A stretch of 64,000 nucleotides of DNA from Candidatus Eiseniibacteriota bacterium. GTDB lineage: Bacteria > Eisenbacteria > RBG-16-71-46. Shown here in pieces: positions 709 to 18,313 of this stretch. The notes under the pieces were generated by a model. That model saw only the letters and a program-made list of their open reading frames with translations, made no database searches and had not been told where the DNA came from. The translations under genes and the position numbers were made by a program. Within the stretch, counting starts at the first letter, position 1; each line of letters opens with the position of its first letter. The stretch is taken from the NCBI GenBank assembly GCA_963717935.1, contig CAVQXP010000004.1, positions 736,001 to 800,000 of the forward strand. Direction: 5' to 3'.

Positions 709-1995
709 ATGACCGCCCCTGCGGTCTGGATCCTGGGCGGAATCCGCACGCCTTTCGCCAGGGCGGGGACGGCGCTCCGCCTCATGAGCGTCGTCGAGCT
801 CGGGCGTCTGGCCGTGGGCGAGCTGCTGGCGCGCCACGAGTTGGATCCGGCGCGACTCGACGAGGTCATCCTGGGCAACTGCGCCCAGCCGGCCGAGGCC
901 GCCAACGTCGCGCGCGTGACCGCCCTGCGCGCCGGCATCCCCGAGCGCGTGCCCGGACTGACCGTGCACCGCAACTGTGCCTCCGGCATGGAAGCCGTGG
1001 GGCTGGCCGCGGAGCGTATCCAGCTCGGGCGCGCGCAGCTCGTCCTGGCCGGCGGCATGGAATCCATGAGCCAGGTCCCGCTGCTGTTCCCGCCCGAATT
1101 CGGCGTCTGGCTCGAAGGCGTGACCCGGGCGAAACACCCGCTCGCGCGCCTGGGCGCGGCACTGCGCTTCCGGCCCGCGCTGCTGCGGCCGCGGCCCGCG
1201 TTGCTCGAGGCGCTGCACGACCCGGTGTGCGGGCTCGGCATGGGGGAGACCGCGGAGCTCCTGGCACGCGAGTTCGACCTGCGGCGCGAGCGCCAGGACG
1301 AGTTCGCGCTCCTGAGCCACCAGCGTGCGGTGGCGGCGCGCGAAAGGCTGCGCGAGGAGATCGTGCCGGTCTTCCCGCCGCCCACCTGCGAGCTGATGCG
1401 CGACGACGCGGGGCCGCGCGAGGACCAGACGCTCGAGCAACTGGCGCGACTTCGGCCTTGCTTCGACCGGCGCAACGGCACGGTCACCGTGGGCAACGCC
1501 TGCCCGGTCACCGATGGGGCGGTGGCCCTCCTGGTCGGTGGCGAGGAGGCCGCGCGTGACTGGCCCGTGCCGCCGCTGGGGCGGGTGCGGGCCTGGGCGG
1601 TCGCGGGGCTCGAACCGCGGCGCATGGGGCTCGGGCCGGTCCACGCCATCGCGCGCGTGCTCGACGAGACCGGGTTTTCGCTCGAGGATTTCGAACTGTT
1701 CGAGATCAACGAAGCCTTCGCCGTTCAGGTGCTGGCCTGTCTCGAGGCGGCCAGGTCCGTGCCGTTCGCGCGCGCCGAACTGGGCCGCGACCGGGCGCTG
1801 GGCGAGATCCCGCTCGAGCGGCTCAACGTGAACGGCGGGGCCATCGCGCTGGGGCACCCGGTGGGGGCGAGCGGGGCGCGGCTGCTGCTCACGCTGCTGC
1901 TCGAGATGCGCCGCCGCGGGGCGAAGCGCGGGCTCGCGGCGCTGTGCGTGGGTGGCGGACAGGGCGCTGCCTTCGTGCTGGAGCGTGACGGATGA
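709..1995 (+). CDS. Acetyl-CoA C-acyltransferase (3-ketoacyl-CoA thiolase, FadI/FadA-like)
   Basis: RTPF, HRNCASGM (active Cys), EINEAFA, GHPVGASG and LCVGGGQG thiolase motifs; ATGA overlap with the next gene. Confidence 0.95.
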   Translation: MTAPAVWILGGIRTPFARAGTALRLMSVVELGRLAVGELLARHELDPARLDEVILGNCAQPAEAANVARVTALRAGIPERVPGLTVHRNCASGMEAVGLAAERIQLGRAQLVLAGGMESMSQVPLLFPPEFGVWLEGVTRAKHPLARLGAALRFRPALLRPRPALLEALHDPVCGLGMGETAELLAREFDLRRERQDEFALLSHQRAVAARERLREEIVPVFPPPTCELMRDDAGPREDQTLEQLARLRPCFDRRNGTVTVGNACPVTDGAVALLVGGEEAARDWPVPPLGRVRAWAVAGLEPRRMGLGPVHAIARVLDETGFSLEDFELFEINEAFAVQVLACLEAARSVPFARAELGRDRALGEIPLERLNVNGGAIALGHPVGASGARLLLTLLLEMRRRGAKRGLAALCVGGGQGAAFVLERDG

Positions 1996-4157
1996 GCGTG
2001 TTCCACGTCGAGTTCCTGCCGTCGGGTGTGCCGGGTCCGGAGGGGATCGCCCACCTCGTGATGGACGACCCCACACGGCGGGTGAACGTCATCGACGAGC
2101 AGGCGCTCGGGGACCTCGAGTCCGCGCTCGAGCTGCTCGAAGGCCGGCCGGACCTCGGCGGGCTGGTCGTGCGGAGCGGCAAGCCCGGCACCTTCGTCGC
2201 CGGCGCCGACGTGGACGCGATCGCCGCACTCACGGACCGCGCGCTGGCGCTGGCCCTGGTCCGGCGCGCGCAGGCGGCCTTCGCGCGCCTGGCCGCGCTG
2301 CCCTTCCCGACGGTCGCGGCCATCGACGGGCCCTGCCTGGGCGGGGGCACCGAGCTGGCGCTGGCCTGCCGCTCGCGCGTCGCCGCTCAGGAACCGCACA
2401 CGCGGATCGGGTTGCCCGAGGTCCCGCTCGGCATCATCCCGGGCTCCGGCGGAACCACGCGCCTGCCGGGACTCGTGGGGCTCTCGACCGCGCTGGACCT
2501 CATCCTCACGGGTCGCACGCTGGACGCGCGGGGCGCCGAACGCGCGGGGCTGGTCGAGCGCGCGGTGCCCGGCGTGTGGCTCATCGAGCACGCGCACCGG
2601 CGCCTGGCCGAACTGGCGGCGCGCGGGCGGAGCCACGGGCGCGCCGGCGTCCGCTGGCGGCCGCGGGGACTGCGCTCGTGGTTCATGGATGGAACGCCGT
2701 TCGGGCGGGGCCTGACGTTCGCTCGCGCGCGGGCGATGACGAAGGCGCGCACCGGCGGGCACTACCCGGCGGCGGACGCCGCGCTCAGCGTCCTGCACCA
2801 CGGCTTCGCCCAGCCCATCGAGGCTTCGCTGCGGCTCGAGGCCGAGTGGGTGAGCGACCTGATCGTCGGGCCGGTGTGCAAGAACCTGGTGCGCGGCTTC
2901 CGGCTCGCCGAGCGAGCGCGCAGGGAGTCGCTGCCCGGGATGGAGGAGGCAGCCCCCGTCGAGCGGCTCCAGGTCGTAGGTGCGGGGGCGATGGGCACCG
3001 GTGTCGCCGAACTCGCCAGCCGGCACGGGATCGAGGTGCGGCTGCGCGACACCGATCCGGCCGCGCTGGCGCGCGCGATGCGCGCGGTGCGCGCGCGCGT
3101 CGCCGAACGCTCGGGCCGGCCTGGGGCCGCGCGGCACGAGACCGAGGGGCAGCTCGCGCGCATCTTCCCCAGTCCGGATCTGGCCGGCCTGAAGCGCGCG
3201 GATCTCGCGATCGAGGCGGTGGTGGAGGATCTGGACGTCAAGCGCCGGGTGTTCGGCGAACTCGAGGTCCGCATGCGACCCGACGCGGTGCTGGCGACCA
3301 ACACCTCCTCGCTCTCCGTGGACGAGCTGGCCGCGGGGCTCGAGCGCCCGCAGCGCTTCGTCGGGATGCATTTCTTCAATCCGGTCCACCGCATGCCGCT
3401 GGTCGAGGTGGTGCGCGGCGCGAAGACGTCGGCAGTGGCGCTGGCCACGGCCGTCACGCTGGCGCGGCGGCTGGGCAGGACCCCGATCGTGGTGAACGAC
3501 GGACCCGGGTTCGTCGTGAACCGGGTGCTGACGCCCTATCTGCGGGAGGCGTTTCACCTGGTCGAGGATGGCTACCGCGTGGCCGACGTGGACGCGGCCA
3601 TGCGGGCCTTCGGCATGCCCAGGGGGCCCTTCGAGGTGATGGACGATGTGGGCCTCGGCGTCACCGCGAACGTGGCCGCGGTCCTGGGCCGGGCGTTCCC
3701 CGGGCGCGTCGCACCCGTGCCGCAACTCGACGCTCTGCTGAAGGCGGGGCTCCTGGGACGGAAGAGCGGCGCGGGGTTCTACCGTTACTGGAGTGGACGG
3801 CGCACGCTGGATCCGCTGGCCGCGCGGCTACTGCGTCCCGCGCGCGAGCGCCGACCCGCGAGCCTCGAGGTCCTCGCCGAGCGGATGACGCTCGCCATGG
3901 TGAACGAGGCCGCGCACTGCCTCGCCGATGGCGTGGTGGCGGACGCCGGGACGCTGGACCTGGCGCTGCTCTGCGGCGCCGGTTTCCCGCCCTACCGCGG
4001 CGGTCCGCTGCGCCACGCCGACGCGCTGGGACTCGCCAGGGTGGAAGCCCGGCTGACGGCGCTGCGCGCCGAGAAGGGCGAGCGCTTCAAGCCCGCGCCG
4101 CTCATCGAGGAACTCGCGGCCCGGGGCGGAACGTTCACGGAGCCGGCGAGCGGGTAG
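1992..4157 (+). CDS. Fatty acid oxidation complex alpha subunit (enoyl-CoA hydratase / 3-hydroxyacyl-CoA dehydrogenase, FadJ-like)
   Basis: FVAGAD, CLGGGTELALAC, GLPEVPLGIIPGSGG, VVGAGAMG, IEAVVEDL, ATNTSSL and GMHFFNPVHRMPLVE motifs. Confidence 0.95.
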   Translation: MSVFHVEFLPSGVPGPEGIAHLVMDDPTRRVNVIDEQALGDLESALELLEGRPDLGGLVVRSGKPGTFVAGADVDAIAALTDRALALALVRRAQAAFARLAALPFPTVAAIDGPCLGGGTELALACRSRVAAQEPHTRIGLPEVPLGIIPGSGGTTRLPGLVGLSTALDLILTGRTLDARGAERAGLVERAVPGVWLIEHAHRRLAELAARGRSHGRAGVRWRPRGLRSWFMDGTPFGRGLTFARARAMTKARTGGHYPAADAALSVLHHGFAQPIEASLRLEAEWVSDLIVGPVCKNLVRGFRLAERARRESLPGMEEAAPVERLQVVGAGAMGTGVAELASRHGIEVRLRDTDPAALARAMRAVRARVAERSGRPGAARHETEGQLARIFPSPDLAGLKRADLAIEAVVEDLDVKRRVFGELEVRMRPDAVLATNTSSLSVDELAAGLERPQRFVGMHFFNPVHRMPLVEVVRGAKTSAVALATAVTLARRLGRTPIVVNDGPGFVVNRVLTPYLREAFHLVEDGYRVADVDAAMRAFGMPRGPFEVMDDVGLGVTANVAAVLGRAFPGRVAPVPQLDALLKAGLLGRKSGAGFYRYWSGRRTLDPLAARLLRPARERRPASLEVLAERMTLAMVNEAAHCLADGVVADAGTLDLALLCGAGFPPYRGGPLRHADALGLARVEARLTALRAEKGERFKPAPLIEELAARGGTFTEPASG

Positions 4158-4464
4158 GCCCGCACCGCCGGCGGTGGCCGCCCGGCGGCGCACGCTCCGA
4201 CCGGAATGCGGAAACGCCCGGCTGGTGGGCCGGGCGTCTGCCGTGGGAGGCCGGAGCTTGCCCACTCCGGGACCCTGCTCGCAACTCTGGAACACTCGCA
4301 CGACTGGCTAGCTCGCTCGCCACGTTCTCGCGTACGTGACGCTACTATTGACGCTCCGAACGGCCGATAAGTTGCAACGCGCGCGCAAAGAACGCGGCGA
4401 AGGGGACCAGCGCGGTGGTGCGGGCGACGAAAGCCGCGTTCATTGGGGTTTTCGCGGGCCTTGC

Positions 4465-4492
4465 TTGACTTCCTGCTGACCTCGGGCATAGT
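4465..4492 (+). promoter_or_regulatory. Putative sigma70 promoter for the gdh operon
   Basis: TTGACT-16 nt-CATAGT in an intergenic region about 380 nt upstream of the gdh ATG. Confidence 0.4.
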
Positions 4493-4875
4493 TGATTCGG
4501 GTTTTCGGGCCCACCCCCATGGGGGGGCACACGGGTCCGACGGCTGTTCCCCCGCTTACCGCGGCCGTCCGGCCGCGCGACCCGAGCGCGGGGGTGCTGA
4601 CGGGAGCACCGGTACACGGCCATGGATCTGCTGTCGCGCTCGAGGGGCTCGTCGCCTGACCGGGAGACGGGTTCTTTTCATTGGTGCGCGGGTGGCCACG
4701 GCCCGGCCGTGTCTTTCGCCCGATTCTCCGCGGCGGCGTTCGCGCCGGCGCGGTACCTGATCCGGCTGGCTCCGCGCCATGCGGGCCGGACCGACTTCGC
4801 CGTTCCTACCGCCGTTGGGCACTCCGACACGCACGTCGTCGCGGTCGCCCCCGGCCGGGCTTCCAGGAGAGACTC

Positions 4876-6162
4876 ATGAGCACGAAGGGGTTCAATTCGT
4901 TCGAGATCGCCCAGGCCCAGTTCGACCAGGTCGCCGCACTGCTCGATCTGGACGCCGGGACGCGCGAGTTCCTGCGCTGGCCGATGCGGGAGTACGCCTT
5001 CAGCATCCCGGTGCGCATGGACGACGGGCACGTGAAGGTCTTCCGCGGCTTCCGCGTGCAGCACAACGACGCCCGCGGACCCTCGAAGGGTGGCATCCGC
5101 TTCCACCCGCAGGAGACCGTGGACACGGTGCGCGCCCTCTCCATGTGGATGACCTGGAAGTGCGCGGTGGTGGACATCCCGCTGGGCGGCGGCAAGGGCG
5201 GCGTGATCTGCGACCCGCACAACCTGAGTGCCCGCGAGCAGGAGCAGATCTGCCGTGGCTGGGTGCGGCAGCTGGTGCGCAACGTGGGTCCGGTCCAGGA
5301 CGTCCCGGCGCCCGACGTCATGACCAACGCGCAGCACATGCTGTGGATGCTCGACGAGTTCGAGGCGGTGCGCGGCGGCCGCTACCCCGGGTTCATCACC
5401 GGCAAGCCCGTCGGCCTGGGTGGCTCGCTGGGGCGCACCGAAGCGACCGGCTACGGCGTGGTCTTCACGCTGCGCGAGGCGCTGCGCGAGCACGGCGTCG
5501 CGGTCGAATCCACGCGCGCCAGCGTGCAGGGCTTCGGCAACGTGTCCCAGTACGCCATCCGGCTCTACGAGCAGCTCGGCGGCAAGGTCATCTGCGTGTC
5601 CTCGTGGGACCAGAAGGACCAGGCCTCGTATTCCTTCAAGCGGGTCTCCGGCGTGGACATGGACCAGCTGGTGGGCATCACCGACGTCTTCGGCGGCATC
5701 GACAAGGAGAAGGCGAAGAAGCTCGGCTACGAGGTGCTGCCGGGCGACGCGTGGATCGAGCAGCCGGTCGAGATCCTGATGCCCTGCGCGCTCGAGAACC
5801 AGATCACGCCCGTGACCGTGAAGAAGATCCACGCGGCCGTGAAGTTCGTGGCCGAGGGCGCCAATGGTCCCACCACCACCGAGGCCGACGCGGTGCTCAA
5901 GGACCGGGGGATCTACCTGATCCCGGACTTCCTGGCCAACGCGGGCGGCGTGACCTGCAGCTACTTCGAGCAGGTGCAGTGCAACATGAACTACTACTGG
6001 GACAAGGACGAGGTGCTGGGCAAGCTCGACAGCAAGATGACCTCGGCCTTCCTCGCGGTGAGCGAGCTGGCGCGCGAGCGCAAGCTGTACATGCGTGACG
6101 CCGCCTATGTCATCGCCATCAACCGCGTCGCCCAGGCCTGCAAGGACCGCGGCTGGGTGTGA
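4876..6162 (+). CDS. gdhA: Glu/Leu/Phe/Val dehydrogenase (glutamate dehydrogenase)
   Basis: GFRVQHN, GPSKGGIRFHP, MTWKCA, GGGKGG, DVPAPD, ITGKP..GGSLGR.EATGYG, QGFGNV, EGANGP and PDFLANAGGV motifs; RBS AGGAGA before ATG 4876. Confidence 0.95.
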   Translation: MSTKGFNSFEIAQAQFDQVAALLDLDAGTREFLRWPMREYAFSIPVRMDDGHVKVFRGFRVQHNDARGPSKGGIRFHPQETVDTVRALSMWMTWKCAVVDIPLGGGKGGVICDPHNLSAREQEQICRGWVRQLVRNVGPVQDVPAPDVMTNAQHMLWMLDEFEAVRGGRYPGFITGKPVGLGGSLGRTEATGYGVVFTLREALREHGVAVESTRASVQGFGNVSQYAIRLYEQLGGKVICVSSWDQKDQASYSFKRVSGVDMDQLVGITDVFGGIDKEKAKKLGYEVLPGDAWIEQPVEILMPCALENQITPVTVKKIHAAVKFVAEGANGPTTTEADAVLKDRGIYLIPDFLANAGGVTCSYFEQVQCNMNYYWDKDEVLGKLDSKMTSAFLAVSELARERKLYMRDAAYVIAINRVAQACKDRGWV

Positions 6163-6214
6163 CGGCGGGAGCCGGGGCGGCGCGCGACGCCGCCCCGGCG
6201 ACGCGGTCCCGACC

Positions 6215-8017
6215 ATGAACAGCGACGCTACGGGCGGCCAGGGGTTGCCGCGGTTCGACCGCCGCTTCTTCGAGGGGCGGGAGACCTTCACCACCATCGG
6301 CTCGGGCGCTCTCGGGGGCAAGGCCTCGGGATTGCTCGCCGCGCGTGAAGCGCTGGCGGACCGGCCGGCGGCCCTGCGCCATGAGGACCTGGAGATCTCG
6401 GTCCCGACGCTCACCGTGATCACCACCAACGCGTTCGACCTGTTCCTCGAGCGTAACCGCCTCCACGAGCTGGTCTACTCGGGCTCCGACGACCGCCAGA
6501 TCGCGGCCGCGCTGCAGCGAGCGGAGCTTCCCACGGAGATCGTGGGCGACCTGTGGGCGCTCGTCCGGCGGGTCCACACGCCGCTGGCGGTGCGCTCTTC
6601 GAGCCTGCTCGAGGACGCGCTGGCGCACCCGTTCGCCGGCGTGTACGCGACCAAGATGATCCCCAACAACCCGCACGACCCCGAGACCCGCTTTCGCAAG
6701 CTGGTCGAGGCGGTCAAGTTCGTCTACGCCTCGACCTTCTTCCGCGCGGCGCGCACCTACGTGCGCGTGGCCGGCCGGAAGCCGGAGGAGGAGAAGATGG
6801 CGGTGATCGTGCAGGAGGTGGTGGGGCACCGGCACGGCCCGCGCTTCTACCCCGAGGTCGCGGGGGTGGCCCGCTCGTGGAACTTCTACCCGACGGGACA
6901 CGCGCAGCCGGCCGACGGTGTGCTGGACCTGGCGCTCGGTCTGGGCCGGACCATCGTGGACGGCGGGCGCGCGTGGACCTGCTCGCCCGCCCACCCGCGC
7001 TCGGTGCCGCCGTTCAACTCGGTGGGCCACATGATCGAGCAGAGCCAGAGCGAGTTCTGGGCGGTGAACATGGGCCCGCCTCCGGCGTACGACCCCACGA
7101 TCGAGACGGAATACCTGGTGCAGGCGGGCCTCGCCGACGCCGAGGCGGACGGGACGCTGGTCCACGTCGCCTCGACCTACGACCCCGACTCGGACCGCGT
7201 CGTCATGGGGGTGGGATCCAGCGGCCCGCGCATCGTGGATTTCGCGCCGATGCTGCGGCTGGCGCGGTGGCCGGTGATCGAGGCGGTGCGCGGCCTGCTC
7301 GCGCTCTTCGCCGCCCGCCTGGGCGCCCCCGTGGAGATCGAGTTCGCGCTCACCTTCCCCGACCCGTCTGCGAAGGGTGCCCGGCCTTCCCCCGGCGCCC
7401 CGGAGGGCCTCCCCGCCCGCCTGGGCTTCCTGCAGGTGCGGCCGATGCTGGTCAGCAGCCAGACGGTCGAGATCGGGGAGGATGAACTTGCCGGTCCGCG
7501 GGCCGTGGTGCGCTCCGAGCACGTCATGGGGAACGGGGTCATCGAGGGCCTCCGCGATGTCGTGTACGTGAAGCCCGAGGTCTTCGAGGCGCGCCATACG
7601 CCGGCGATCGCCGCGGAGGTGGACCGCCTGAACCAGGCGCTGGTCGAGGAGGGCCGGTCCTGCGTGCTGGTCGGCTTCGGCCGCTGGGGCAGCGCCGATC
7701 CCTGGCTGGGCATCCCGGTCGAGTGGGCCCAGATCGCGAGCGCACGCGTCATCGTCGAGGCGAGCCTGCCGGCCATGAACGTGGACATGAGCCAGGGCGC
7801 GCATTTCTTTCACAACCTGCTGAGCTTCCGCGTGGTCTACTTCTCCGTGCCGGGCCTCGACGCGTCGGGGATCGACTGGGAGTGGCTGCGCGGGCTCCCG
7901 GCCCGGCGGGAGACCGATTTCGTACGGCACGTGGAGACGCCGGCGCCCCTGCTCGTGAGGGTGGACGGCCGCCGGGGCCGGGGTGTGGTGCTGCGCGGCA
8001 TGGGGGGGGACGCATGA
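6215..8017 (+). CDS. PEP/pyruvate-binding (PPDK_N, PEP-synthase-like ATP-grasp) domain protein, short form
   Basis: GGKASGL, LAVRSSSLLED, FAGVY, MAVIVQEVVG, GLGRTIVDG, VEIEFA and FLQVRP motifs; C-terminal GRWGS..SQGAHFFHN region; no pyruvate-binding TIM barrel. Confidence 0.85.
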   Translation: MNSDATGGQGLPRFDRRFFEGRETFTTIGSGALGGKASGLLAAREALADRPAALRHEDLEISVPTLTVITTNAFDLFLERNRLHELVYSGSDDRQIAAALQRAELPTEIVGDLWALVRRVHTPLAVRSSSLLEDALAHPFAGVYATKMIPNNPHDPETRFRKLVEAVKFVYASTFFRAARTYVRVAGRKPEEEKMAVIVQEVVGHRHGPRFYPEVAGVARSWNFYPTGHAQPADGVLDLALGLGRTIVDGGRAWTCSPAHPRSVPPFNSVGHMIEQSQSEFWAVNMGPPPAYDPTIETEYLVQAGLADAEADGTLVHVASTYDPDSDRVVMGVGSSGPRIVDFAPMLRLARWPVIEAVRGLLALFAARLGAPVEIEFALTFPDPSAKGARPSPGAPEGLPARLGFLQVRPMLVSSQTVEIGEDELAGPRAVVRSEHVMGNGVIEGLRDVVYVKPEVFEARHTPAIAAEVDRLNQALVEEGRSCVLVGFGRWGSADPWLGIPVEWAQIASARVIVEASLPAMNVDMSQGAHFFHNLLSFRVVYFSVPGLDASGIDWEWLRGLPARRETDFVRHVETPAPLLVRVDGRRGRGVVLRGMGGDA

Positions 8018-11000
8018 CCGAACAGGGGCCGATGGACGAGATCCTGAAGGCGTTGCAGGAACGGGCCAAGGAGCTCAACTGCCTCTACCGCATCGACGAG
8101 ATCGTGCACGACGTGGAGCGGCCGGTCGAGGATTTGCTGCGCGCGGTGGCCGAGGCGCTGCCGCAGGGCGTGCAGTACCCGGCGCACTGCGTGGCGCGCT
8201 GCGTGCTGCGCGATCTCGACGTGCGCGGCGCGGACTTCGTCGAGACCCCGTGGAAGCTCTCGGCGCCCATCGTCATCTCGAACCGGCGGGTCGGCGAGCT
8301 GTGCATCTACTACACGCAGCAGATGCCCAGGGCCGACGAGGGGCCGTTCCTCAAGGAGGAGCGCAGGCTCATCGATGCGGCCGCCGACCGTGTCGCCCGG
8401 GCCGTCCAGCACCGCGAGCTGACCGAGGTGTTCGGGCGCACGCAGATCGGCCACTCCGCGGTGGACGCCGTGCTCCGCCAGGACTGGAGCATCATCCTCG
8501 ACCTGCTGCGCCGCACCGACCAGAACCTGTACAACCAGGTCGCGCGCAAGATGCTGAACCACCTGTCCTGGAGCGGCATCGAGGAAGCCAAGGAGCTGCT
8601 CCTCAGCATCGCCGGCCCGGAGGAGGCGTGGGAGCCCGGTGACGAGAATCGCCCGACGCGGCGCAACGCGCCCAAGGACTTCGAGGTCATCAGCGCCGAG
8701 ACCTTTGAGATCGCGGCTGCCCACCTGAGCGAGCAGGAGCTGCTCAGCAGCATCCAGACCTGGATCAAGGAGGACCGGCTCAACTTCCTGGTGCTTGCGC
8801 TCGAGAGCAGCAACACCTCGCTGCCCGAGATCGCCAACGCGCTGGAGCGCTACCACCACACGGGCCTGGACGTGCGCGAGCTGTCGCCCGCCATGCACCT
8901 GGGTCTCAAGGTCTCGCTCATCCGGCGCCTGCTCACCGACAACCTCGAGTTCATCAACACCTGCCGGCCGTGGGTGGAGATCGATGACTTCGTGGACCTC
9001 GTCAGCCACACCATCCTGCTGCCACATAGCCACGGCCGGGTGGGCGGCAAGGCCAGCGGGCTCCTGCTGGCGCGGCACGTCCTGCGGCGCTCTCCCGAGC
9101 ACCGCGAGCTGCTGGACGGGGTCAAGGTGCCCCGGACCTGGTACGTGCCCTCGGACGGTCTCCTCCAGTTCCTCGCCTACAACAACCTTGACGACGTCTA
9201 CAACTGGAAGTACCGCGACTTGGACGAGATCCGGCAGGAATACCCGCACATGCTCCAGGTCTTCAAGAGCTCGCGTTTCCCGGCCGAGTTCGTGCAGGGG
9301 CTCTCGACCGCGCTCGACGACCTCGGCGACCGGCCGCTCATCGTGCGCAGCTCGAGCCTGCTCGAGGACCGCGCGGGCGCGGCCTTCTCGGGGAAGTACA
9401 AGAGCCTGTTCCTCGCGAACCAGGGCCGCAAGGCCGACCGGCTGGCGGCCCTGCTGGACGCCATCGCCGAGGTCTACGGCTCGGTCTTCGGCCCGGATCC
9501 TCTCCAGTACCGCGCGGAGCGCGGGTTGCTCGAGCATCACGAAGAGATGGGCATCATGATCCAGGAGGTGGTGGGCATGCGCGTGGGCCGCTACTTCCTG
9601 CCTTCGTTCGCGGGCGTCGGCTTCAGCAACAACGAGCTGCGCTGGTCGCCCCGCATCCGGCGCGACGACGGGTTGCTGCGCCTGGTGCCGGGTCTCGGCA
9701 CGCGCGCGGTGGACCGTCTGGCCGATGACTACCCGATCCTGGTCGCGCCGGGGCAGCCAGGGCTGCGCGTCAACGTCACCCCGGAGGAGGTCTGCCGCTA
9801 CTCGCCGCGCAAGGTCGACGTCATCAATCTGGAGACCAACTCCTTCGAGACCGTGGACCGCCACACCCTGCTGAAAGAAGTCGGCGGACACCTCCCCAGG
9901 CTCGCCCAGATCGTCTCGCTCTACGAGCACGACATGCTGCGGCGCCCCGGCGGCCTCGACCTGCGCTTCAACGAGGACAACCTGATCTTCACCTTCGAGG
10001 GCCTGTTGACGAACACCGACTTCGTGCCGCGCATGCAGGCCGTCCTCAAGGTCCTGCGCGAGGCGCAGGGCGTACCGGTGGACATCGAGTTCGCCTCGAA
10101 CGGAGACGAACTCTACCTGCTGCAGTGCCGGCCCCAGAGTCACGCGCCGGACACCGCGCCGGCACCCATCCCGCGCGACCTGCCGCAGGAGCGCGTGCTG
10201 TTCTCCGCCAACCGCTATGTCTCGAACGGCGCCGTGCCCGACATCACGCACATCGTCTACGTGGACCCCGATGGCTACAGCCGGCTGGGCGACCTGAACG
10301 AGTTGCGCGACGTGAGCCGCGCCGTCAGCAGTCTCAACAAGATCCTGCCCAAGCGCCAGTTCGTCCTCATGGGACCGGGGCGCTGGGGCAGCCGCGGCGA
10401 TGTCAAGCTGGGCGTGAGCGTGACGTATTCCGACATCAACAACACCGCGATGCTGATCGAGGTCGCGCGCAAGAAGGGCAACTACGTCCCGGATCTCTCG
10501 TTCGGCACGCACTTCTTCCAGGACCTCATCGAGTCAGGGATCCGCTACCTGCCGCTCTACCCCGACGATCCGGGCGTGGCCTTCAACGAGCCGTTCTTCC
10601 GCAAGTCCGAGAACGTCCTGGCCCGGCTGCTGCCGGACCTCGCGTACCTCGCGGACACCGTGCGGGTGATCGACGTGCCGGAGGCCGCGGGTGGCCAGGT
10701 GCTGCGCGTGCTCATGAACGCCGACCTCGAGGAGGCCGTGGGCGTGCTGGCCCCGCCGGGCGTGGCCGTGGTCACGTCGGCAGCGCTGCCGAGCCCCACG
10801 GCGCGGCCGGCGGAGGACCACTGGCGCTGGCGGTTGCGCATGGCGCAGAAGGTCGCCGCGGACCTCGATCCCGCGCGCTTCGGCGTCCACGCTTTCTACG
10901 TCTTCGGCAGCACGAAGAACGCCTCGGCCGGGCCCGGCAGCGACATCGACGTCATCATCCACTTCAGGGGCACGCCGGAGCAGCGCCGGGAGCTGGAACT

Positions 11001-11193
11001 CTGGCTCGAGGGCTGGAGCCTGTGCCTTGCGGAGATGAACTTCCTGCGCACCGGCTACCACAGCGAGGGCCTGCTGGACGTGCACCTCGTCACCGACGAA
11101 GACCTCGTGCGGCAGACCAGCTACGCGGCCAAGATCGGGGCCATCACGGACGCCGCGCGTCCGCTCATGCTGGGAGGCCCGGCGGCGGGATGA
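8014..11193 (+). CDS. PPDK_N-family protein with N-terminal GAF-like domain and C-terminal nucleotidyltransferase domain
   Basis: ATGA overlap; N-terminal ERAKELNCLY...QYP...GPFLKEE segment; GGKASGL, IVRSSSLLED, FSGKY, IQEVVG, GLGTRAV, DIEFA and LLQCRP; SFGTHFFQ; C-terminal YVFGSTKN..GPGSDIDVII. Confidence 0.85.
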   Translation: MTEQGPMDEILKALQERAKELNCLYRIDEIVHDVERPVEDLLRAVAEALPQGVQYPAHCVARCVLRDLDVRGADFVETPWKLSAPIVISNRRVGELCIYYTQQMPRADEGPFLKEERRLIDAAADRVARAVQHRELTEVFGRTQIGHSAVDAVLRQDWSIILDLLRRTDQNLYNQVARKMLNHLSWSGIEEAKELLLSIAGPEEAWEPGDENRPTRRNAPKDFEVISAETFEIAAAHLSEQELLSSIQTWIKEDRLNFLVLALESSNTSLPEIANALERYHHTGLDVRELSPAMHLGLKVSLIRRLLTDNLEFINTCRPWVEIDDFVDLVSHTILLPHSHGRVGGKASGLLLARHVLRRSPEHRELLDGVKVPRTWYVPSDGLLQFLAYNNLDDVYNWKYRDLDEIRQEYPHMLQVFKSSRFPAEFVQGLSTALDDLGDRPLIVRSSSLLEDRAGAAFSGKYKSLFLANQGRKADRLAALLDAIAEVYGSVFGPDPLQYRAERGLLEHHEEMGIMIQEVVGMRVGRYFLPSFAGVGFSNNELRWSPRIRRDDGLLRLVPGLGTRAVDRLADDYPILVAPGQPGLRVNVTPEEVCRYSPRKVDVINLETNSFETVDRHTLLKEVGGHLPRLAQIVSLYEHDMLRRPGGLDLRFNEDNLIFTFEGLLTNTDFVPRMQAVLKVLREAQGVPVDIEFASNGDELYLLQCRPQSHAPDTAPAPIPRDLPQERVLFSANRYVSNGAVPDITHIVYVDPDGYSRLGDLNELRDVSRAVSSLNKILPKRQFVLMGPGRWGSRGDVKLGVSVTYSDINNTAMLIEVARKKGNYVPDLSFGTHFFQDLIESGIRYLPLYPDDPGVAFNEPFFRKSENVLARLLPDLAYLADTVRVIDVPEAAGGQVLRVLMNADLEEAVGVLAPPGVAVVTSAALPSPTARPAEDHWRWRLRMAQKVAADLDPARFGVHAFYVFGSTKNASAGPGSDIDVIIHFRGTPEQRRELELWLEGWSLCLAEMNFLRTGYHSEGLLDVHLVTDEDLVRQTSYAAKIGAITDAARPLMLGGPAAG

Positions 11194-12043
11194 GCGCGCG
11201 GGTCGCCTGCCCGGGCGACTCGAGATCGAAGCGCACCAGCGCCAGCTCGGGGCCGTCGTGGGCGGCCGAGAGACAGTGCGTGCGCCCGAGGCGGTCGCGC
11301 CAATCGCCGGTGAGCCGCGCTGACTCGTGCACGTGGCCGTGGAGCGAGAGCAGCGGCTGGCGCGCCTCGAGGAAGCGTCGGACGGCGATGCTCCCCACGT
11401 GCGGGTCGAGCGGGACGTGGTCCACGGTCTGGCCGTCGAGCGCCGCGCGGTCGAGCCGCGTGTCGTAGGGCGGCGCGTGGAAGAGGAAGACCCCCCGGGC
11501 GAGGTCCCCGGCGCCGGCGAGCCGCTCGAGGTCTTCGCGGATCGTGGCGTTGCGTGCCTCGCCCTCGTGCAGCGGGACCGTGCGCCAGCCCTCCTCGGGT
11601 GAGGTGCAGCCGGGGTCCACGTGGCGCGAGACGTCGTAGCGCTCCCAGTCCTTGAGCGCGAAGGGCGTGGGGGGCACGCAGGCGTAGCCGAAGACCGTCC
11701 AGTCGCCGAACGGGATGCGCCGCCCGTGCGCGTATTCCCAGACGCCCGTCGCGGCGGCCTCGATCACGCTCTCCTCCTCGGCGCGCCCGTCGTCGTTGCC
11801 GAGGATGAGGAAGACCCGCGGTGCCGCGGCGCCGAGGTCCTCGCGCACGCGCGTGAAGCCGGGTGCGAGGACCTCCCGCACGAAGTCGCCGTCCGCGGCG
11901 CCGACCGCCGCGGCGAGGCCGGAGGGTAGGAGGTCTCCGCCCAGGAACACGGCGGCCGGACGTTCGGCGCGGATCACCGTGAACAGCGCCGCGTAACGCC
12001 CGGCCGCGCCGTGCAGGTCGGCGACGAAGAGGCAGCGGGTCAT
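11165..12043 (-). CDS. Metallophosphoesterase (Icc-like)
   Basis: ADLHG, GGDL, LGNDD, FHAPP and LHGHVHE calcineurin-like motifs; the 3' end overlaps the convergent gene by 29 bp. Confidence 0.9.
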   Translation of the reverse strand: MTRCLFVADLHGAAGRYAALFTVIRAERPAAVFLGGDLLPSGLAAAVGAADGDFVREVLAPGFTRVREDLGAAAPRVFLILGNDDGRAEEESVIEAAATGVWEYAHGRRIPFGDWTVFGYACVPPTPFALKDWERYDVSRHVDPGCTSPEEGWRTVPLHEGEARNATIREDLERLAGAGDLARGVFLFHAPPYDTRLDRAALDGQTVDHVPLDPHVGSIAVRRFLEARQPLLSLHGHVHESARLTGDWRDRLGRTHCLSAAHDGPELALVRFDLESPGQATRALIPPPGLPA

Positions 12044-12055
12044 GAAAAGTCCGGG

Positions 12056-14124
<2,069 letters not shown>

Positions 14125-14128
<4 letters not shown>

Positions 14129-14704
14129 GATCCAGCCTCCTCGAGCACGCCGACGTAGGGCAGGTTCCGGTACCGCTCGACGTCGTCCATCCCATAGCCG
14201 ACCACGAACTCCTTGCCGATCTTCCAGCCCGAGTAGTCCACGGGTACCTGGATCCTGCGGCAAGGCACCTTGTCGAGCAAGGTCGCGACCCGCAGGCTCG
14301 CGGGGCGCCGCCGCTTCAGCACGTCGAGCAGGAACGATACGCTCAGGCCGGAGTCCACCACGCCCTCGCAGAGCACCACGTGGCGGTCCGCGACGTCCTC
14401 GCGCAGGTCCATCAGCAGGCGCACGTTGCCGCTCGACGTCTTTCCGGCGCCGTAGGACGAGACCGAGACGAAGTCGAGGTCCAGGTCGATGGGCGTGGCG
14501 CGCGCCAGGTCGCACTGGAACATGCAGGCGCCCTTCAGCACCCCGACGAACAGCGGACGTTTGTCCTCGTAGTCGCGCGCCAGCTCCAGTCCGAGCTCGC
14601 GCAGGCGCCGGGCGATCTGCTCGGCGCGTGAACATGACCCGCATGACGGGACCCGTACCCGGGACGATGGCTTCGGCGTGGTCGGCTGGCTGGCTCTCAG
14701 TCAT
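14125..14704 (-). CDS. hpt: Hypoxanthine phosphoribosyltransferase (one apparent frameshift near 14625)
   Basis: VGVLKGA, VSSYG, LLDK and FVVGYGMD..ERYRNLPY motifs; sits between tilS and ftsH; removing one base near 14625 joins MRVMFT to AEQIARRLRELG. Confidence 0.9.
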
Positions 14705-17153: not shown

Positions 17154-17509
17154 GAAGGTGCACGATTACCCGGTGGGGCCGGCTCGTCAACCCCACGGCT
17201 CGCGCTCGAAGGCGCGACGCCCCAGGCCCGCGCTGCGGTCCCTGCGCCGCCGGGGACCCGGGTGGATCCCGTTCGTGGCCCATCCTCCCGCGTCCGTCCG
17301 CGACCTTGCCGGATCCGGCCGCCAGGAGGGGCAAGATCCCTCGCACGAGTCCACGCTGTCCCTGATCGTGGCCTCGTCTCCGGCCCGGCGGACCCCCGGG
17401 TCCGTGCCGGGAACCTGCCGCTGGTGGTTGAGGGACTGCCTCGGCAGGAGGGCCGGTAAGGCGAGGTTCGGTACTGCTGCGCCGATTCACATCCGCGGCG
17501 GAGGTGACG

Positions 17510-18313
17510 ATGAAGATGCCCCGGCTTCTCATCGGGCTGATGCTCGCCCTGCTGCTCCTGGCGCCGATCCCGTCCGGAGCGGTGGCGGCGAAGCGACCGG
17601 TCCACGCGGCGCGCGACACCGCGATGGTGCTCATCCCTGCCGGTGAGTTCGTGATGGGCCGCGAGGGGACCGGGGACAACAGCCCGGCGCACGCGGTGCG
17701 CATCCGAGCCTTCAGCCTCGACCGTTGCGAGGTGACGAATGCGGAGTACGCGGCGTTCTGCCAGGCCACCGGCAGATCGCTCCCGTTCTTCTGGGGCCTC
17801 GACCGCTTCCGCTCGGGACCGAAATACCCGGACCACCCGGTGATCGGCGTGAACTCGGGCGATGCGCGGGAGTACGCGGAATGGCGCGGGAAGAGGCTCC
17901 CCACCGAGGCCGAATGGGAGTACGCCGCGCGCGGGGGGCTTGCGGGGATGAGATACGTGAACGGCAACACGCTGGATTCGTCGAAGGTGAACTTCACACG
18001 CTCGCAACGGAACGGCCCGGTTGCGGTCGGCTCCTACGAGTCCAACGGCTATGGGCTCTACGACATGGCGGGCAACGTCCAGGAATGGGTCGCCGACCGG
18101 TACGGCGCCGAGTACTACAAGACCAGTCCGGCCGAAGATCCGCAGGGACCGGAGAAGGGCCGGCTCCGCGTGATCCGCGGCGGTGGCTGGTTCACCGGGC
18201 CGATGTGCATGGACGTGGACATCCGCTACGCGCTGCACTCGAACTGGGTGGACTTCAACGTCGGTTTCCGCTGCGCGAGGGACGCGGAGCCAGGGCCGAC
18301 GCAGCCGAAGTAG
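17510..18313 (+). CDS. Secreted formylglycine-generating enzyme family (SUMF1/FGE-sulfatase domain) protein
   Basis: Signal peptide; IPAGEFVMG, EVTNAEY, HPVIGV, RLPTEAEWEYAARGG, NGYGLYDMAGNVQEW, RGGGW and GFRC; RBS GGAGGT. Confidence 0.92.
   Translation: MKMPRLLIGLMLALLLLAPIPSGAVAAKRPVHAARDTAMVLIPAGEFVMGREGTGDNSPAHAVRIRAFSLDRCEVTNAEYAAFCQATGRSLPFFWGLDRFRSGPKYPDHPVIGVNSGDAREYAEWRGKRLPTEAEWEYAARGGLAGMRYVNGNTLDSSKVNFTRSQRNGPVAVGSYESNGYGLYDMAGNVQEWVADRYGAEYYKTSPAEDPQGPEKGRLRVIRGGGWFTGPMCMDVDIRYALHSNWVDFNVGFRCARDAEPGPTQPK

Follow-up and report, generated by a model that had tools for sequence, protein, structure and literature searches.

A conserved glutamate dehydrogenase cassette with two dikinase-like paralogs and a metallophosphoesterase as a probable GDH switch

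In the 64,000-nt stretch of DNA analyzed here (the window), the gene for a glutamate dehydrogenase (GDH) is followed by two genes for dikinase-like paralogs, a 600-aa protein (SHORT) and a 1059-aa multidomain protein (LONG), and a metallophosphoesterase gene converges on the second of them. This four-gene set probably switches GDH on and off by an unstudied route. We tentatively read it as a sensor-equipped, dikinase-derived writer/eraser module acting on the GDH protein, and give this reading not quite an even chance. The cassette or its relatives are present in at least 593 species-level genomes, and no paper on this kinase-like family was found in literature searches.

Gene order and domain content of the cassette

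The genes gdh, SHORT and LONG lie in this order on the + strand (Table 1). A 52-nt spacer (6163-6214) separates gdh from SHORT, and the stop codon of SHORT is overlapped by the ATG of LONG (ATGA). A sequence-only reading had described gdh followed, 52 nt on, by two translationally coupled paralogs, and this was confirmed from the ORFs and translations. Pairwise alignment bears out the paralogy, with 28% identity between SHORT and LONG over 541 columns (E 3e-32), the C-terminal domain included. A promoter scan of positions 4100-12200 gave one sigma-70-like site against 0.3 expected, and no terminator-like site was found on the + strand from gdh to the end of LONG. The spacer region (6155-6220) folds with a dG of -45.5 kcal/mol (z -3.99), and none of 200 shuffles was equally stable. 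The hairpin was considered as a conserved intercistronic element and rejected: just 16 of 51 gdh-SHORT spacers from other loci are unusually stable (z < -2), so it is not a defining or universal part of the cassette.

Table 1. Coordinates and supporting evidence of the features in the window
Feature	Position	Strand	Evidence
Sigma-70-like promoter match upstream of gdh	4465..4492	+	Weak, consensus only
gdh, hexameric-type glutamate dehydrogenase, 428 aa (P0001)	4876..6162	+	ELFV_dehydrog_N and ELFV_dehydrog (Pfam)
12-bp GC hairpin in gdh-SHORT spacer, without trailing T-run	6171..6199	+	Folding versus shuffles
SHORT, 600-aa dikinase-like protein (P0002)	6215..8017	+	Pfam PPDK_N only
SHORT ATP-grasp (PPDK_N) domain, residues 32-417	6308..7465	+	Pfam (E 4.6e-33), fold matches
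SHORT C-terminal domain, residues 425-600	7487..8014	+	Invariant GRWGS, Glu515, S-x-G-x-His530-F-F
LONG, 1059-aa multidomain paralog (P0004)	8014..11193	+	ORF, Pfam, alignment
LONG GAF-like domain, residues 1-135, with invariant ERAKELNCLY-type helix	8014..8418	+	Weak profile, one fold match
LONG helical region, residues 157-335	8482..9018	+	No known family
LONG ATP-grasp (PPDK_N) domain, residues 342-722	9037..10179	+	Pfam (E 7.7e-54), fold matches, alignment
LONG copy of the C-terminal-type domain, residues 728-905	10195..10728	+	GRWGS, S-F-G-T-His833-F-F
LONG minimal (MNT/Pol-beta type) nucleotidyltransferase, residues 930-1059	10801..11190	+	Pfam, motif, fold
Calcineurin-like metallophosphoesterase, 292 aa	11165..12043	-	Metallophos PF00149 (E 2.1e-8)

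The gdh product contains all six catalytic and binding residues that were checked (K71, K95, K107, D147, R187 and S362). Its closest PDB relative is 1euz (E 2.6e-121). It scores 461.6 against the NCBIfam model GdhA_Arch, under the equivalog cut-off of 750. Among the cassette GDHs (n = 53), column identity averages 80%.

SHORT and LONG both carry a PPDK_N domain with the catalytic Lys, Arg, Glu and Gln motifs, as judged from alignment with E. coli PpsA. The ATP-grasp motifs picked out earlier (GGK, VRSS..ED, QE.V, GLG, IEFA and LQ.RP) do align with PpsA and with a Rhizobium split-dikinase subunit. Fold matches to the ATP-grasp domain of SHORT include rifampin phosphotransferase (RPH), PEP synthase, PPDK and HpeI, and the domain has a conserved family-specific insertion at about residues 255-345. 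The AF2 models have a pLDDT of 87.8 and pTM of 0.89 (SHORT) and a pLDDT of 80.7 and pTM of 0.70 (LONG). More than 7,900 of 8,000 scored proteins are SHORT relatives of about 590 aa, and among the matches listed the identity to SHORT is 55-95%. Pfam detected neither PEP-utilizers nor the TIM barrel PEP-utilizers_C (PF02896) in SHORT or LONG, so the two proteins do lack an acceptor barrel, as had been proposed. They resemble PEP synthase and PPDK in the ATP-grasp motifs and fold and in having a His-bearing domain next; without the PEP-utilizers domain and the barrel, however, they are not PEP synthase or PPDK as enzymes. NCBIfam PEP synthase models score 12-58 bits on them against cut-offs of 598-1063.

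LONG exceeds SHORT by 459 residues. The N-terminal GAF-like domain and helical region and the C-terminal nucleotidyltransferase had been missed by the sequence-only reading. A single open frame spans the N- to C-terminal match of LONG in 55 loci, some of which end at a contig edge. The Pfam GAF profile hits 12 of 44 LONG members below its cut-off (15-17 bits vs 22.4; best E 0.0024), and the N-terminus has a fold match over 190 columns (probability 1.00) to the GAF part of the sensor kinase 6ob8. At the other end, NTP_transf_2 (PF01909) matches residues 956-996 (E 1.2e-5, 26 bits against a cut-off of 21) and Polbeta matches too. In the nucleotidyltransferase motif G965, S966 and D977 are invariant and D979 is kept in at least 90% of sequences; fold matches are 2rff, 8xeh_E and 7ae9_E. 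In fold and in the GS...DxD motif this domain is like the MntA-type nucleotidyltransferases of MNT-HEPN systems. Those have a HEPN partner, whereas no HEPN domain was found in LONG or the neighboring genes and the LONG nucleotidyltransferase is fused to a kinase-like protein. A defense system was considered and rejected because PADLOC gave weak matches, to the nucleotidyltransferase only.

The metallophosphoesterase gene, also overlooked before, has a 29-nt 3' overlap with LONG. It adjoins the cassette in 39 of 80 related loci (37 of the 52 with LONG and enough room, leaving 15 without) and is found nowhere else in these loci. Residues D9, H11, G36, G82-N83-D84-D85, H189, H235, H237 and H239 are invariant in 33 metallophosphoesterases and D37 is kept in at least 90%, and the metal-binding motifs DxH, GD, GNx[DE], H and GHxH are all present. 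The metallophosphoesterase is thus the fourth conserved member of the cassette.

Conservation and linkage to GDH

The 80 related loci were sampled from more than 10 phyla, among them Acidobacteriota, Eisenbacteria, Ignavibacteriota, Calditrichota, Zixibacteria, Planctomycetota, Bacteroidota, Spirochaetota, Cloacimonadota and Gemmatimonadota. A linkage to gdh had been suggested earlier for other anaerobes; it proved real and strong. gdh is the immediate upstream neighbor, on the same strand, in 61 of 80 loci and a divergent neighbor in 2; in 5 there is no room and in 12 it is absent. Six of these 12 belong to a sister clade, and among the non-sister loci with room, 6 of 69 have no upstream gdh. 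LONG follows SHORT in 68 of 80 loci; it is absent from 11, and in 1 there is no room for it. In length, 19 protein clusters (1617-1655 aa) correspond to a SHORT-LONG fusion. Four of them were checked by Pfam as fusions, three fusion-length proteins contain the C-terminal domain twice, and P0130 matches the whole of LONG over residues 582-1634 with 56% identity. No GDH-PPDK_N fusion was found among 47 long GDH relatives, which is weak evidence.

Members of the sister clade (about 985 aa) consist of a pseudo-receiver, an ATP-grasp and the C-terminal domain, with no nucleotidyltransferase. They adjoin a different GDH type in five loci (L010, L045, L067, L075 and L079) and also in the gut Bacteroidales Parabacteroides distasonis and Phocaeicola massiliensis. 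In an alignment with a canonical regulator, Cys, Thr, Ser or Met occupies the acceptor position of the receiver in seven of seven sister-clade proteins; without the phospho-acceptor Asp, a classical phosphorelay is unlikely there. Saccharopine dehydrogenase is fused to one relative and encoded downstream of another, so GDH is not the partner in every case.

The kinase-like proteins might instead sense carbon/nitrogen status and signal to another target, for example a transcription factor or different enzymes; gdh would simply be co-transcribed as a member of the same regulon. This would fit the loci where no gdh adjoins the family members (L048, L049, L053, L078 and the Prevotella locus L086), the many types of N-terminal domain across the family (receiver, TIR/NB-ARC and pentapeptide repeats among them) and the naming of one member (P0147) as a histidine kinase by one source. 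However, the linkage to a GDH fold recurs in two separate kinase clades with two GDH types, it outlasts the loss of GDH catalysis, and no conserved DNA-binding protein was found in the cassette. We regard a target other than GDH as distinctly unlikely.

The catalytic Lys is kept in 46 of 53 cassette GDHs and missing in seven. For six of these seven an intact second GDH is encoded nearby, and the aligned SHORT and LONG proteins from the Lys-less loci keep their invariant residues. A dead GDH kept beside the kinases argues for a link at the protein level and not a metabolic one. The Lys-less copies further suggest that pseudo-enzyme regulatory GDH subunits evolved repeatedly. A parallel is found in the GdhA/GdhB hetero-hexamer of Thermus thermophilus, in which a GDH paralog with low or no catalysis is the regulatory partner of a catalytic GDH (the structure 3aoe has two different chains); in contrast, most cassette GDHs retain the catalytic Lys.

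The same loci bear on whether the cassette modifies a metabolite. SHORT and LONG could phosphorylate, and the nucleotidyltransferase nucleotidylylate, a small molecule linked to glutamate or 2-oxoglutarate, which would be bound in the ATP-grasp insertion as rifampin is in RPH and supplied or consumed by GDH. Every characterized PPDK_N enzyme but VadK uses small molecules, the nearest structures are rifampin phosphotransferase, PEP synthase and HpeI, the insertion is strongly conserved in the family, and saccharopine dehydrogenase, another enzyme linked to 2-oxoglutarate and glutamate, is among the partners. A need for GDH turnover is hard to reconcile with intact kinases beside Lys-less GDHs, though, and the GAF-like and pseudo-receiver domains and the paired phosphoesterase look regulatory. 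The genes around the cassette include no conserved transporter and no additional conserved enzyme of a pathway. On balance a small-molecule dikinase appears unlikely.

The C-terminal histidine domain

The conserved His noticed earlier in the C-terminal domain of both paralogs is invariant: His530 of SHORT (QGAHFFHN, codon 7802-7804) in an alignment of 55 relatives and His833 of LONG (FGTHFFQD, codon 10510-10512) in one of 44. Just 12 columns of the domain show no variation when SHORT, LONG and the sister clade are compared, and they lie in GRWGS, one Glu and S-x-G-x-H-F-F. Both conserved loops of the LONG copy have a pLDDT below 50 in the model. A profile of the domain retrieved 2390 protein cluster representatives at E<=1e-3.

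The suggestion that this domain is a phosphohistidine swivel found no support, since the domain is not recognizable as one by Pfam, PDB sequence search or hhalign. PF00391 (PEP-utilizers, with the G-G-x-T-S-H signature) matched 0 of 55 C-domain members at E<=10, with no other relevant Pfam match, and the canonical signature is absent from the window and from all 80 loci. A PDB profile search gave no sequence match of substance; matches to longin domains (E 0.0075-0.021) are weak and were put down to chance. Against PEP-utilizers, hhalign returned probabilities of 0.1-0.2%, the same as the reversed-template control. The templates were E. coli PpsA alone and a four-sequence PEP-utilizers alignment (PpsA, PtsI, Rhizobium and Thioclava), used in local and global modes and again after deletion of two inserted segments. 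An Atlas feature search with the domain returned unnamed fragments of the same family only. Foldseek aligned the whole models with PPDK and PEP synthase over 600-700 columns (TM 0.38-0.42), and only the ATP-grasp part is convincing. A parallel in secondary structure between the C-terminal domain and the swivel domain was seen by eye. It has no statistical support, so only position and invariance point to a His-carrier role.

These results would agree with a scheme without any phosphohistidine relay. The C-terminal domain would then serve ligand binding or assembly, and the ATP-grasp domains would act directly, either as a ligase or, as allosteric subunits sensing ATP/AMP, by non-covalent binding to GDH; covalent chemistry would be left solely to the nucleotidyltransferase, with the phosphoesterase reversing it. 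The C-terminal domain was negative in every sequence test for a swivel domain. One locus (L025) contains gdh, SHORT, a stand-alone 125-aa nucleotidyltransferase gene and the phosphoesterase gene without LONG, so the latter two look like a unit, and MNT-type enzymes are known as protein AMPylators (title of PDB entry 7ae9). On the other side, three subfamilies all keep the His and its loop without change, the order of an ATP-grasp followed by a His domain is that of PPDK and PEP synthase, and the GDH-adjoining sister clade has no nucleotidyltransferase. We consider this relay-free scheme quite improbable.

Proposed mechanism and comparison with known systems

In the reading that we favor, the cassette would be a conserved four-gene module centered on the GDH protein. 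SHORT and LONG would work as one ATP-driven complex; some organisms have them as a single polypeptide. By analogy with every characterized PPDK_N enzyme, the ATP-grasp domain most likely phosphorylates the C-domain His from ATP; this invariant residue is predicted at the N-terminal end of a helix, with a flexible loop in front of it. Neither paralog has a domain for a small-molecule acceptor, so the signal most likely ends in an event at the level of the GDH protein: either GDH receives the phosphoryl group, or binding to GDH depends on phosphorylation, as has been put forward for VadK. A second writing activity, nucleotidylylation, would come from the nucleotidyltransferase of LONG, with the metallophosphoesterase acting as eraser, and the switch would be set by the GAF-like domain at the start of LONG in response to a metabolite. 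The idea, already raised from the sequence, of a regulatory module in place of a metabolic enzyme is the better fit with the sensor-type domains, the nucleotidyltransferase and the phosphoesterase. Two runs of complex prediction for GDH (residues 8-428) with SHORT (residues 14-592), made with their own alignments and without controls, gave an ipSAE of 0.00, which speaks neither for nor against a complex.

GDH connects amino-acid nitrogen with central carbon metabolism and acts as the gate between the two. In concept the proposed module resembles the control of glutamine synthetase by GlnE/GlnD and of isocitrate dehydrogenase by AceK, where a dedicated metabolite-sensing writer/eraser puts a covalent mark on, and removes it from, an enzyme at a carbon/nitrogen branch point. 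Pol-beta-type nucleotidyltransferase domains likewise occur in GlnE and GlnD. The sequence relation is confined to the nucleotidyltransferase superfamily, however; the target is another one, the chemistry would be of the dikinase type, and for the cassette the mark is proposed only.

For the ATP-grasp part, the top match in both structure and sequence is rifampin phosphotransferase (PDB 5hv1 and 5fbs). Its rifampin-binding domain and its canonical C-terminal swivel His domain have no detectable counterpart in SHORT or LONG, and the NCBIfam rifampin phosphotransferase model scores 24.5 and 39.2 bits on them against a cut-off of 999. Split dikinases (HpeI, PDB 9goj, and the Rhizobium pair at L084) likewise distribute the function over more than one polypeptide, and their grasp subunit structurally resembles SHORT and LONG; phenylphosphate synthase is another such enzyme. 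They differ in having a separate canonical PEP-utilizers subunit and carboxylase genes alongside.

The nearest precedent is VadK (Rv1127c) of Mycobacterium tuberculosis, a truncated, PPDK-derived His kinase with no PEP domain that autophosphorylates and interacts with enzymes of a neighboring pathway, the methylcitrate cycle, on which it acts or to which it binds instead of producing PEP; its His422 overlays the catalytic His of PPDK (PMC13400623). VadK and the paralogs share a PPDK-type ATP-binding domain followed by a His domain, with no PEP/pyruvate domain. Unlike VadK as described there, the cassette has a His domain without detectable similarity to PEP-utilizers, two paralogs that are sometimes fused, a GAF-like sensor, a nucleotidyltransferase, a paired phosphoesterase, and GDH as its putative partner. 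If our reading is true, it would carry further a principle of which VadK is so far the sole demonstrated case: dikinases that lose their substrate domain turn into regulatory kinases.

That organotrophs of soil, sediment and gut from many phyla have the cassette would imply a general, unstudied layer of control. To our knowledge, the small hexameric GDHs of bacteria are usually regarded as lacking regulation of the protein itself. In its boldest form, the proposal is a widespread and previously unrecognized post-translational control of GDH, in which a heteromeric, dikinase-derived His-relay kinase with a carrier domain of new or diverged fold, aided by a nucleotidyltransferase, would mark GDH or a dead GDH-like adaptor, the metallophosphoesterase would erase the mark, the GAF-like domain would sense a metabolite, and the sister clade next to gdhA in gut Bacteroidales would be the long-sought inactivator of Bacteroides GDH. 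We hold this full version to be doubtful. Reversible inactivation of GDH in Bacteroides was reportedly described decades ago, and the gut Bacteroidales, which are genetically tractable, offer an entry point for study.

Gene layout around gdh

The G+C content of the window is 71.6% and it therefore contains many long spurious ORFs; the genuine frames were chosen by third-position G+C. The gdh gene (glutamate dehydrogenase, GDH) is followed after a 52-nt spacer by the genes of two dikinase-like paralogues, here called SHORT and LONG, and the SHORT stop codon and LONG ATG overlap as ATGA. ORF, Pfam and alignment evidence agrees with the sequence-only reading in the coordinates, spacing, coupling and motifs of the three genes and in the lack of a PEP-binding barrel in either paralogue. 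No terminator-like site was found on the + strand between gdh, SHORT and LONG, and the sole promoter-like match lies in the 718-nt gap between the fadA-/fadB-like genes and gdh. A GC hairpin in the gdh-SHORT spacer may control the enzyme:regulator ratio; unusually stable spacers were found in 16 of 51 related loci. LONG shares 29 nt at its 3' end (11165-11193) with that of a metallophosphoesterase gene, whose product conserves every metal-binding motif. This gene, which the earlier reading had missed, begins 12 nt beyond an ftsH-like gene that likewise lies on the - strand. The FtsH_ext domain of the latter begins only at residue 239, which means either that the protein is much extended at its N-terminus or that the start was called too far upstream in this high-G+C DNA.

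Coordinates of features in the window and of sister-clade genes in related loci (L-numbers)
Sequence	Feature	Positions	Strand	Remarks
Window	FadA-/FadB-like beta-oxidation genes	709-4157	+	Upstream of cassette, same strand
Window	gdh	4876-6162	+	428 aa
Window	12-bp GC hairpin without T-run	6171-6199		gdh-SHORT spacer
Window	SHORT	6215-8017	+	600 aa
Window	LONG	8014-11193	+	1059 aa
Window	Calcineurin-like metallophosphoesterase gene	11165-12043	-	292 aa, convergent with LONG
Window	ftsH-like ORF	12056-14704	-	882 aa
Window	Formylglycine-generating-enzyme-like gene	17432-18313	+	Further downstream of cassette
L083	Sister-clade gene	6630-9584		Parabacteroides distasonis
L075	Sister-clade gene	8747-11710
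L069	Sister-clade gene	8762-11716
L087	Sister-clade gene			Phocaeicola massiliensis
L086	Sister-clade gene			Prevotella sp.
Others	Sister-clade genes

Linkage to GDH genes across genomes

A single scan of 185,579 species-representative genomes, with an alignment of SHORT relatives as query, gave at least 601 matching stretches, of which at least 593 were confirmed as relatives. The best 80 loci, which are the best-scoring ones and not a random sample, were retained, and GDH, SHORT, LONG (in three parts) and the phosphoesterase were placed in them by tblastn. These loci come from Acidobacteriota, Eisenbacteria, Ignavibacteriota, Calditrichota, Zixibacteria, Planctomycetota, Bacteroidota, Gemmatimonadota, Spirochaetota, Cloacimonadota and others; the nearest to the window is from Eisenbacteria (78% identity in SHORT, 89% in GDH). 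Among the 80, gdh lies directly upstream of SHORT on the same strand in 61 and is adjacent and divergent in two (no room in 5, absent in 12), LONG is found downstream in 68 (no room in 1, absent in 11), and the phosphoesterase gene is adjacent in 39, convergent in 34 and on the same strand in 5 (no room in 18, absent in 23). Of the loci that lack gdh or LONG, six belong to a sister clade whose proteins are no more than 45% identical to SHORT. With this clade excluded from the best 80, gdh adjoins SHORT in 63 of 69 loci that have room for it, in line with the linkage suggested by the sequence-only reading, and LONG does so in 68 of 73. Among the 80, 52 loci contain LONG and leave 400 nt or more of room; the phosphoesterase gene is adjacent in 37 of these, and it never occurs elsewhere in a locus. 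The unit is therefore one of four genes (gdh, SHORT, LONG and phosphoesterase), not three. None of the best 80 loci has ftsH next to the phosphoesterase gene, and FadA-/FadB-like or formylglycine-generating-enzyme-like genes are not conserved beside the cassette in them.

The sister clade (~985 aa) consists of an N-terminal receiver-like domain, a grasp domain and the C-terminal domain found also in SHORT and LONG; the receiver lacks the phospho-acceptor Asp (pseudo-receiver). A second type of GDH, with 31-43% identity to the window GDH and a GGGKGGSDF motif, adjoins it in L010, L045, L067, L075 and L079 and lies within ~1.1 kb in L062 and ~6.5 kb in L069 and L070. In P. distasonis and P. massiliensis the gene is divergent beside gdhA, with a second gdh ~3.5-4 kb on; no GDH was found within 8 kb of it in the Prevotella sp. 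locus. Judged by the neighbours of both clades, there are thus two kinase clades, each tied to its own GDH clade. In P. distasonis and P. massiliensis, both gut Bacteroidales, the sister-clade gene stands between the two gdh genes, and the P. distasonis copy faces a convergent gene of the endonuclease/exonuclease/phosphatase family. An ADP-forming acyl-CoA synthetase-like gene precedes the receiver-type gene in two Spirochaetaceae loci (L069, at 2187-8751, and L070), in which a GltD-like oxidoreductase and the GDH lie ~6.5 kb off on the opposite strand. Two receiver-type relatives (P0230 and P0234) are assigned to the haptophyte algae Prymnesium parvum and Chrysotila; barring contamination, the family therefore extends beyond bacteria.

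The 53 cassette GDHs resemble one another unusually closely (mean column identity 80%). In seven of them (L022, L033, L045, L051, L056, L062 and L063) the GGGKGG motif has M, S, N, T or A in place of its catalytic Lys, and three of the seven also lack a substrate-binding Lys. The full residue set is kept in all 13 second-type GDH genes, and an intact second-type GDH is present in six of the seven Lys-less loci. A quick maximum-likelihood tree places the Lys-less proteins on long branches, and their label requires four changes, at least two of them forced by well-supported branches. Judging from the lost residues, the Lys-less GDHs are probably dead enzymes and appear to be pseudo-enzyme subunits that arose more than once. 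The SHORT and LONG of these loci retain their invariant residues (aligned for SHORT from L022, L033 and L051 and for LONG from L022, L056 and L062). The kinase genes are thus linked to GDH-fold proteins, catalytic or not. A probably dead GDH kept beside intact kinases points to a partnership at the protein level, as target or adaptor, and not to a common metabolite. A small-molecule dikinase is the rival reading here: the top structural matches of SHORT and LONG are rifampin phosphotransferase, PEP synthase, PPDK and HpeI. PEP synthase and PPDK themselves were rejected, since SHORT and LONG lack two of their three defining domains.

Domains, fusions and the invariant His

LONG is not a mere second copy of SHORT, a point that had been overlooked. 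By Pfam and an AF2 model (pLDDT 80.7) it has five parts in sequence: a GAF-like domain (a weak profile match in 12 of 44 relatives, matched in fold by a GAF sensor kinase), a helical stretch that fits no known family, a PPDK_N grasp domain, a C-domain common with SHORT, and a minimal MNT/Pol-beta-type nucleotidyltransferase whose GS...DxD motif is intact. Both grasp domains retain the residues aligned with the E. coli PpsA catalytic motifs, which are invariant in 55 SHORT and 44 LONG relatives. The ATP-grasp, nucleotidyltransferase and phosphoesterase sites are intact in sequence, and the N-terminal domains of LONG and the sister clade are of sensor type by sequence. The original observation is confirmed, and is extended by the extra domains of LONG and the phosphoesterase gene.

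A search among longer proteins gave 19 clusters that, at 1617-1655 aa, are as long as SHORT and LONG fused. All four that were checked contain two PPDK_N stretches and a nucleotidyltransferase, three proteins of fusion length have two C-domain copies, and residues 582-1634 of P0130 show 56% identity to the entire LONG. The fusions suggest that SHORT and LONG act jointly. In L025 LONG is absent and the nucleotidyltransferase is a 125-aa gene of its own between SHORT and the phosphoesterase gene. A protein target other than GDH is a second rival, against which stands the frequent adjacency of gdh. A SHORT-like protein (P0160, 1079 aa) is fused to saccharopine dehydrogenase, and in L023 a saccharopine dehydrogenase gene (1714-3066) lies immediately 3' of SHORT; another 2-oxoglutarate/glutamate-linked dehydrogenase can thus stand in as partner. 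Other relatives (P0152, P0159 and P0223) are fused to TIR/NB-ARC, pentapeptide repeats or an Orn/Lys/Arg decarboxylase N-terminal domain; the core of grasp and C-domain is thus joined to many different input modules.

The C-domain (SHORT 425-600, LONG 728-905) occurs in SHORT, LONG and the sister clade, across which only 12 columns are invariant: GRWGS, one Glu and S-x-G-x-H-F-F. It follows the grasp domain, as the swivel domain does in PPDK and PEP synthase. The invariant His (His530 in SHORT, His833 in LONG) is at a helix start behind a lower-confidence loop in the SHORT model; in the LONG model pLDDT is below 50 in both conserved C-domain loops. The sequence-only reading took this domain for a phosphohistidine swivel, which found no support at the sequence level. 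The 55 members had no match in Pfam, no meaningful match was found among PDB sequences, and hhalign against PEP-utilizers domains at best equaled the reversed control, also with two inserted segments removed. A parallel with PpsA (strand order, ...DPW..., ...VIVEA..., loop-His-helix and ...V-D-G-x-x-G-x-V) was drawn by eye only. These negative results suit a third rival, that there is no His relay whatever; from its position and invariance, and not from homology, we infer that the His is the phospho-carrier.

A candidate GDH-directed module and known systems

The regulatory reading proposed earlier is supported in part, as a proposal: it has strong and independent evidence in the linkage to gdh but lacks sequence support for its swivel domain. 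That the cassette is a GDH-directed regulatory module is a tentative reading, to which we give slightly less than an even chance, and its exact chemistry is held less firmly. ATP would phosphorylate the invariant His, and the phosphoryl group, or a phospho-dependent conformation, would act on GDH. The nucleotidyltransferase would add a second mark, and the phosphoesterase would reverse one or both. The GAF-like domain would sense a metabolite, speculatively 2-oxoglutarate by analogy with other GAF domains.

GlnE/GlnD with glutamine synthetase and AceK with isocitrate dehydrogenase resemble the cassette in concept only. Reversible GDH inactivation has reportedly been described in Bacteroides fragilis. 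The nearest precedent is VadK of Mycobacterium tuberculosis, described as a PPDK whose PEP domain has been lost; it undergoes autophosphorylation on His422 and binds enzymes of the methylcitrate cycle (PMC13400623). The logic is alike, but SHORT and LONG fail the PEP-utilizers test and, unlike VadK, form a pair with a nucleotidyltransferase and a dedicated phosphoesterase; their target would be GDH, whereas the partners of VadK are methylcitrate-cycle enzymes. No paper on the SHORT/LONG family was found in full-text literature searches, with subscription journals largely outside their scope. A Rhizobium leguminosarum plasmid locus (L084, 3062-9286) carries a split dikinase (a PEP-utilizing enzyme and a PPDK_N subunit), after which come genes for biotin carboxyl carrier, biotin carboxylase and a HAD hydrolase; this arrangement matches phosphorylation-carboxylation systems of the acetophenone/acetovanillone type.
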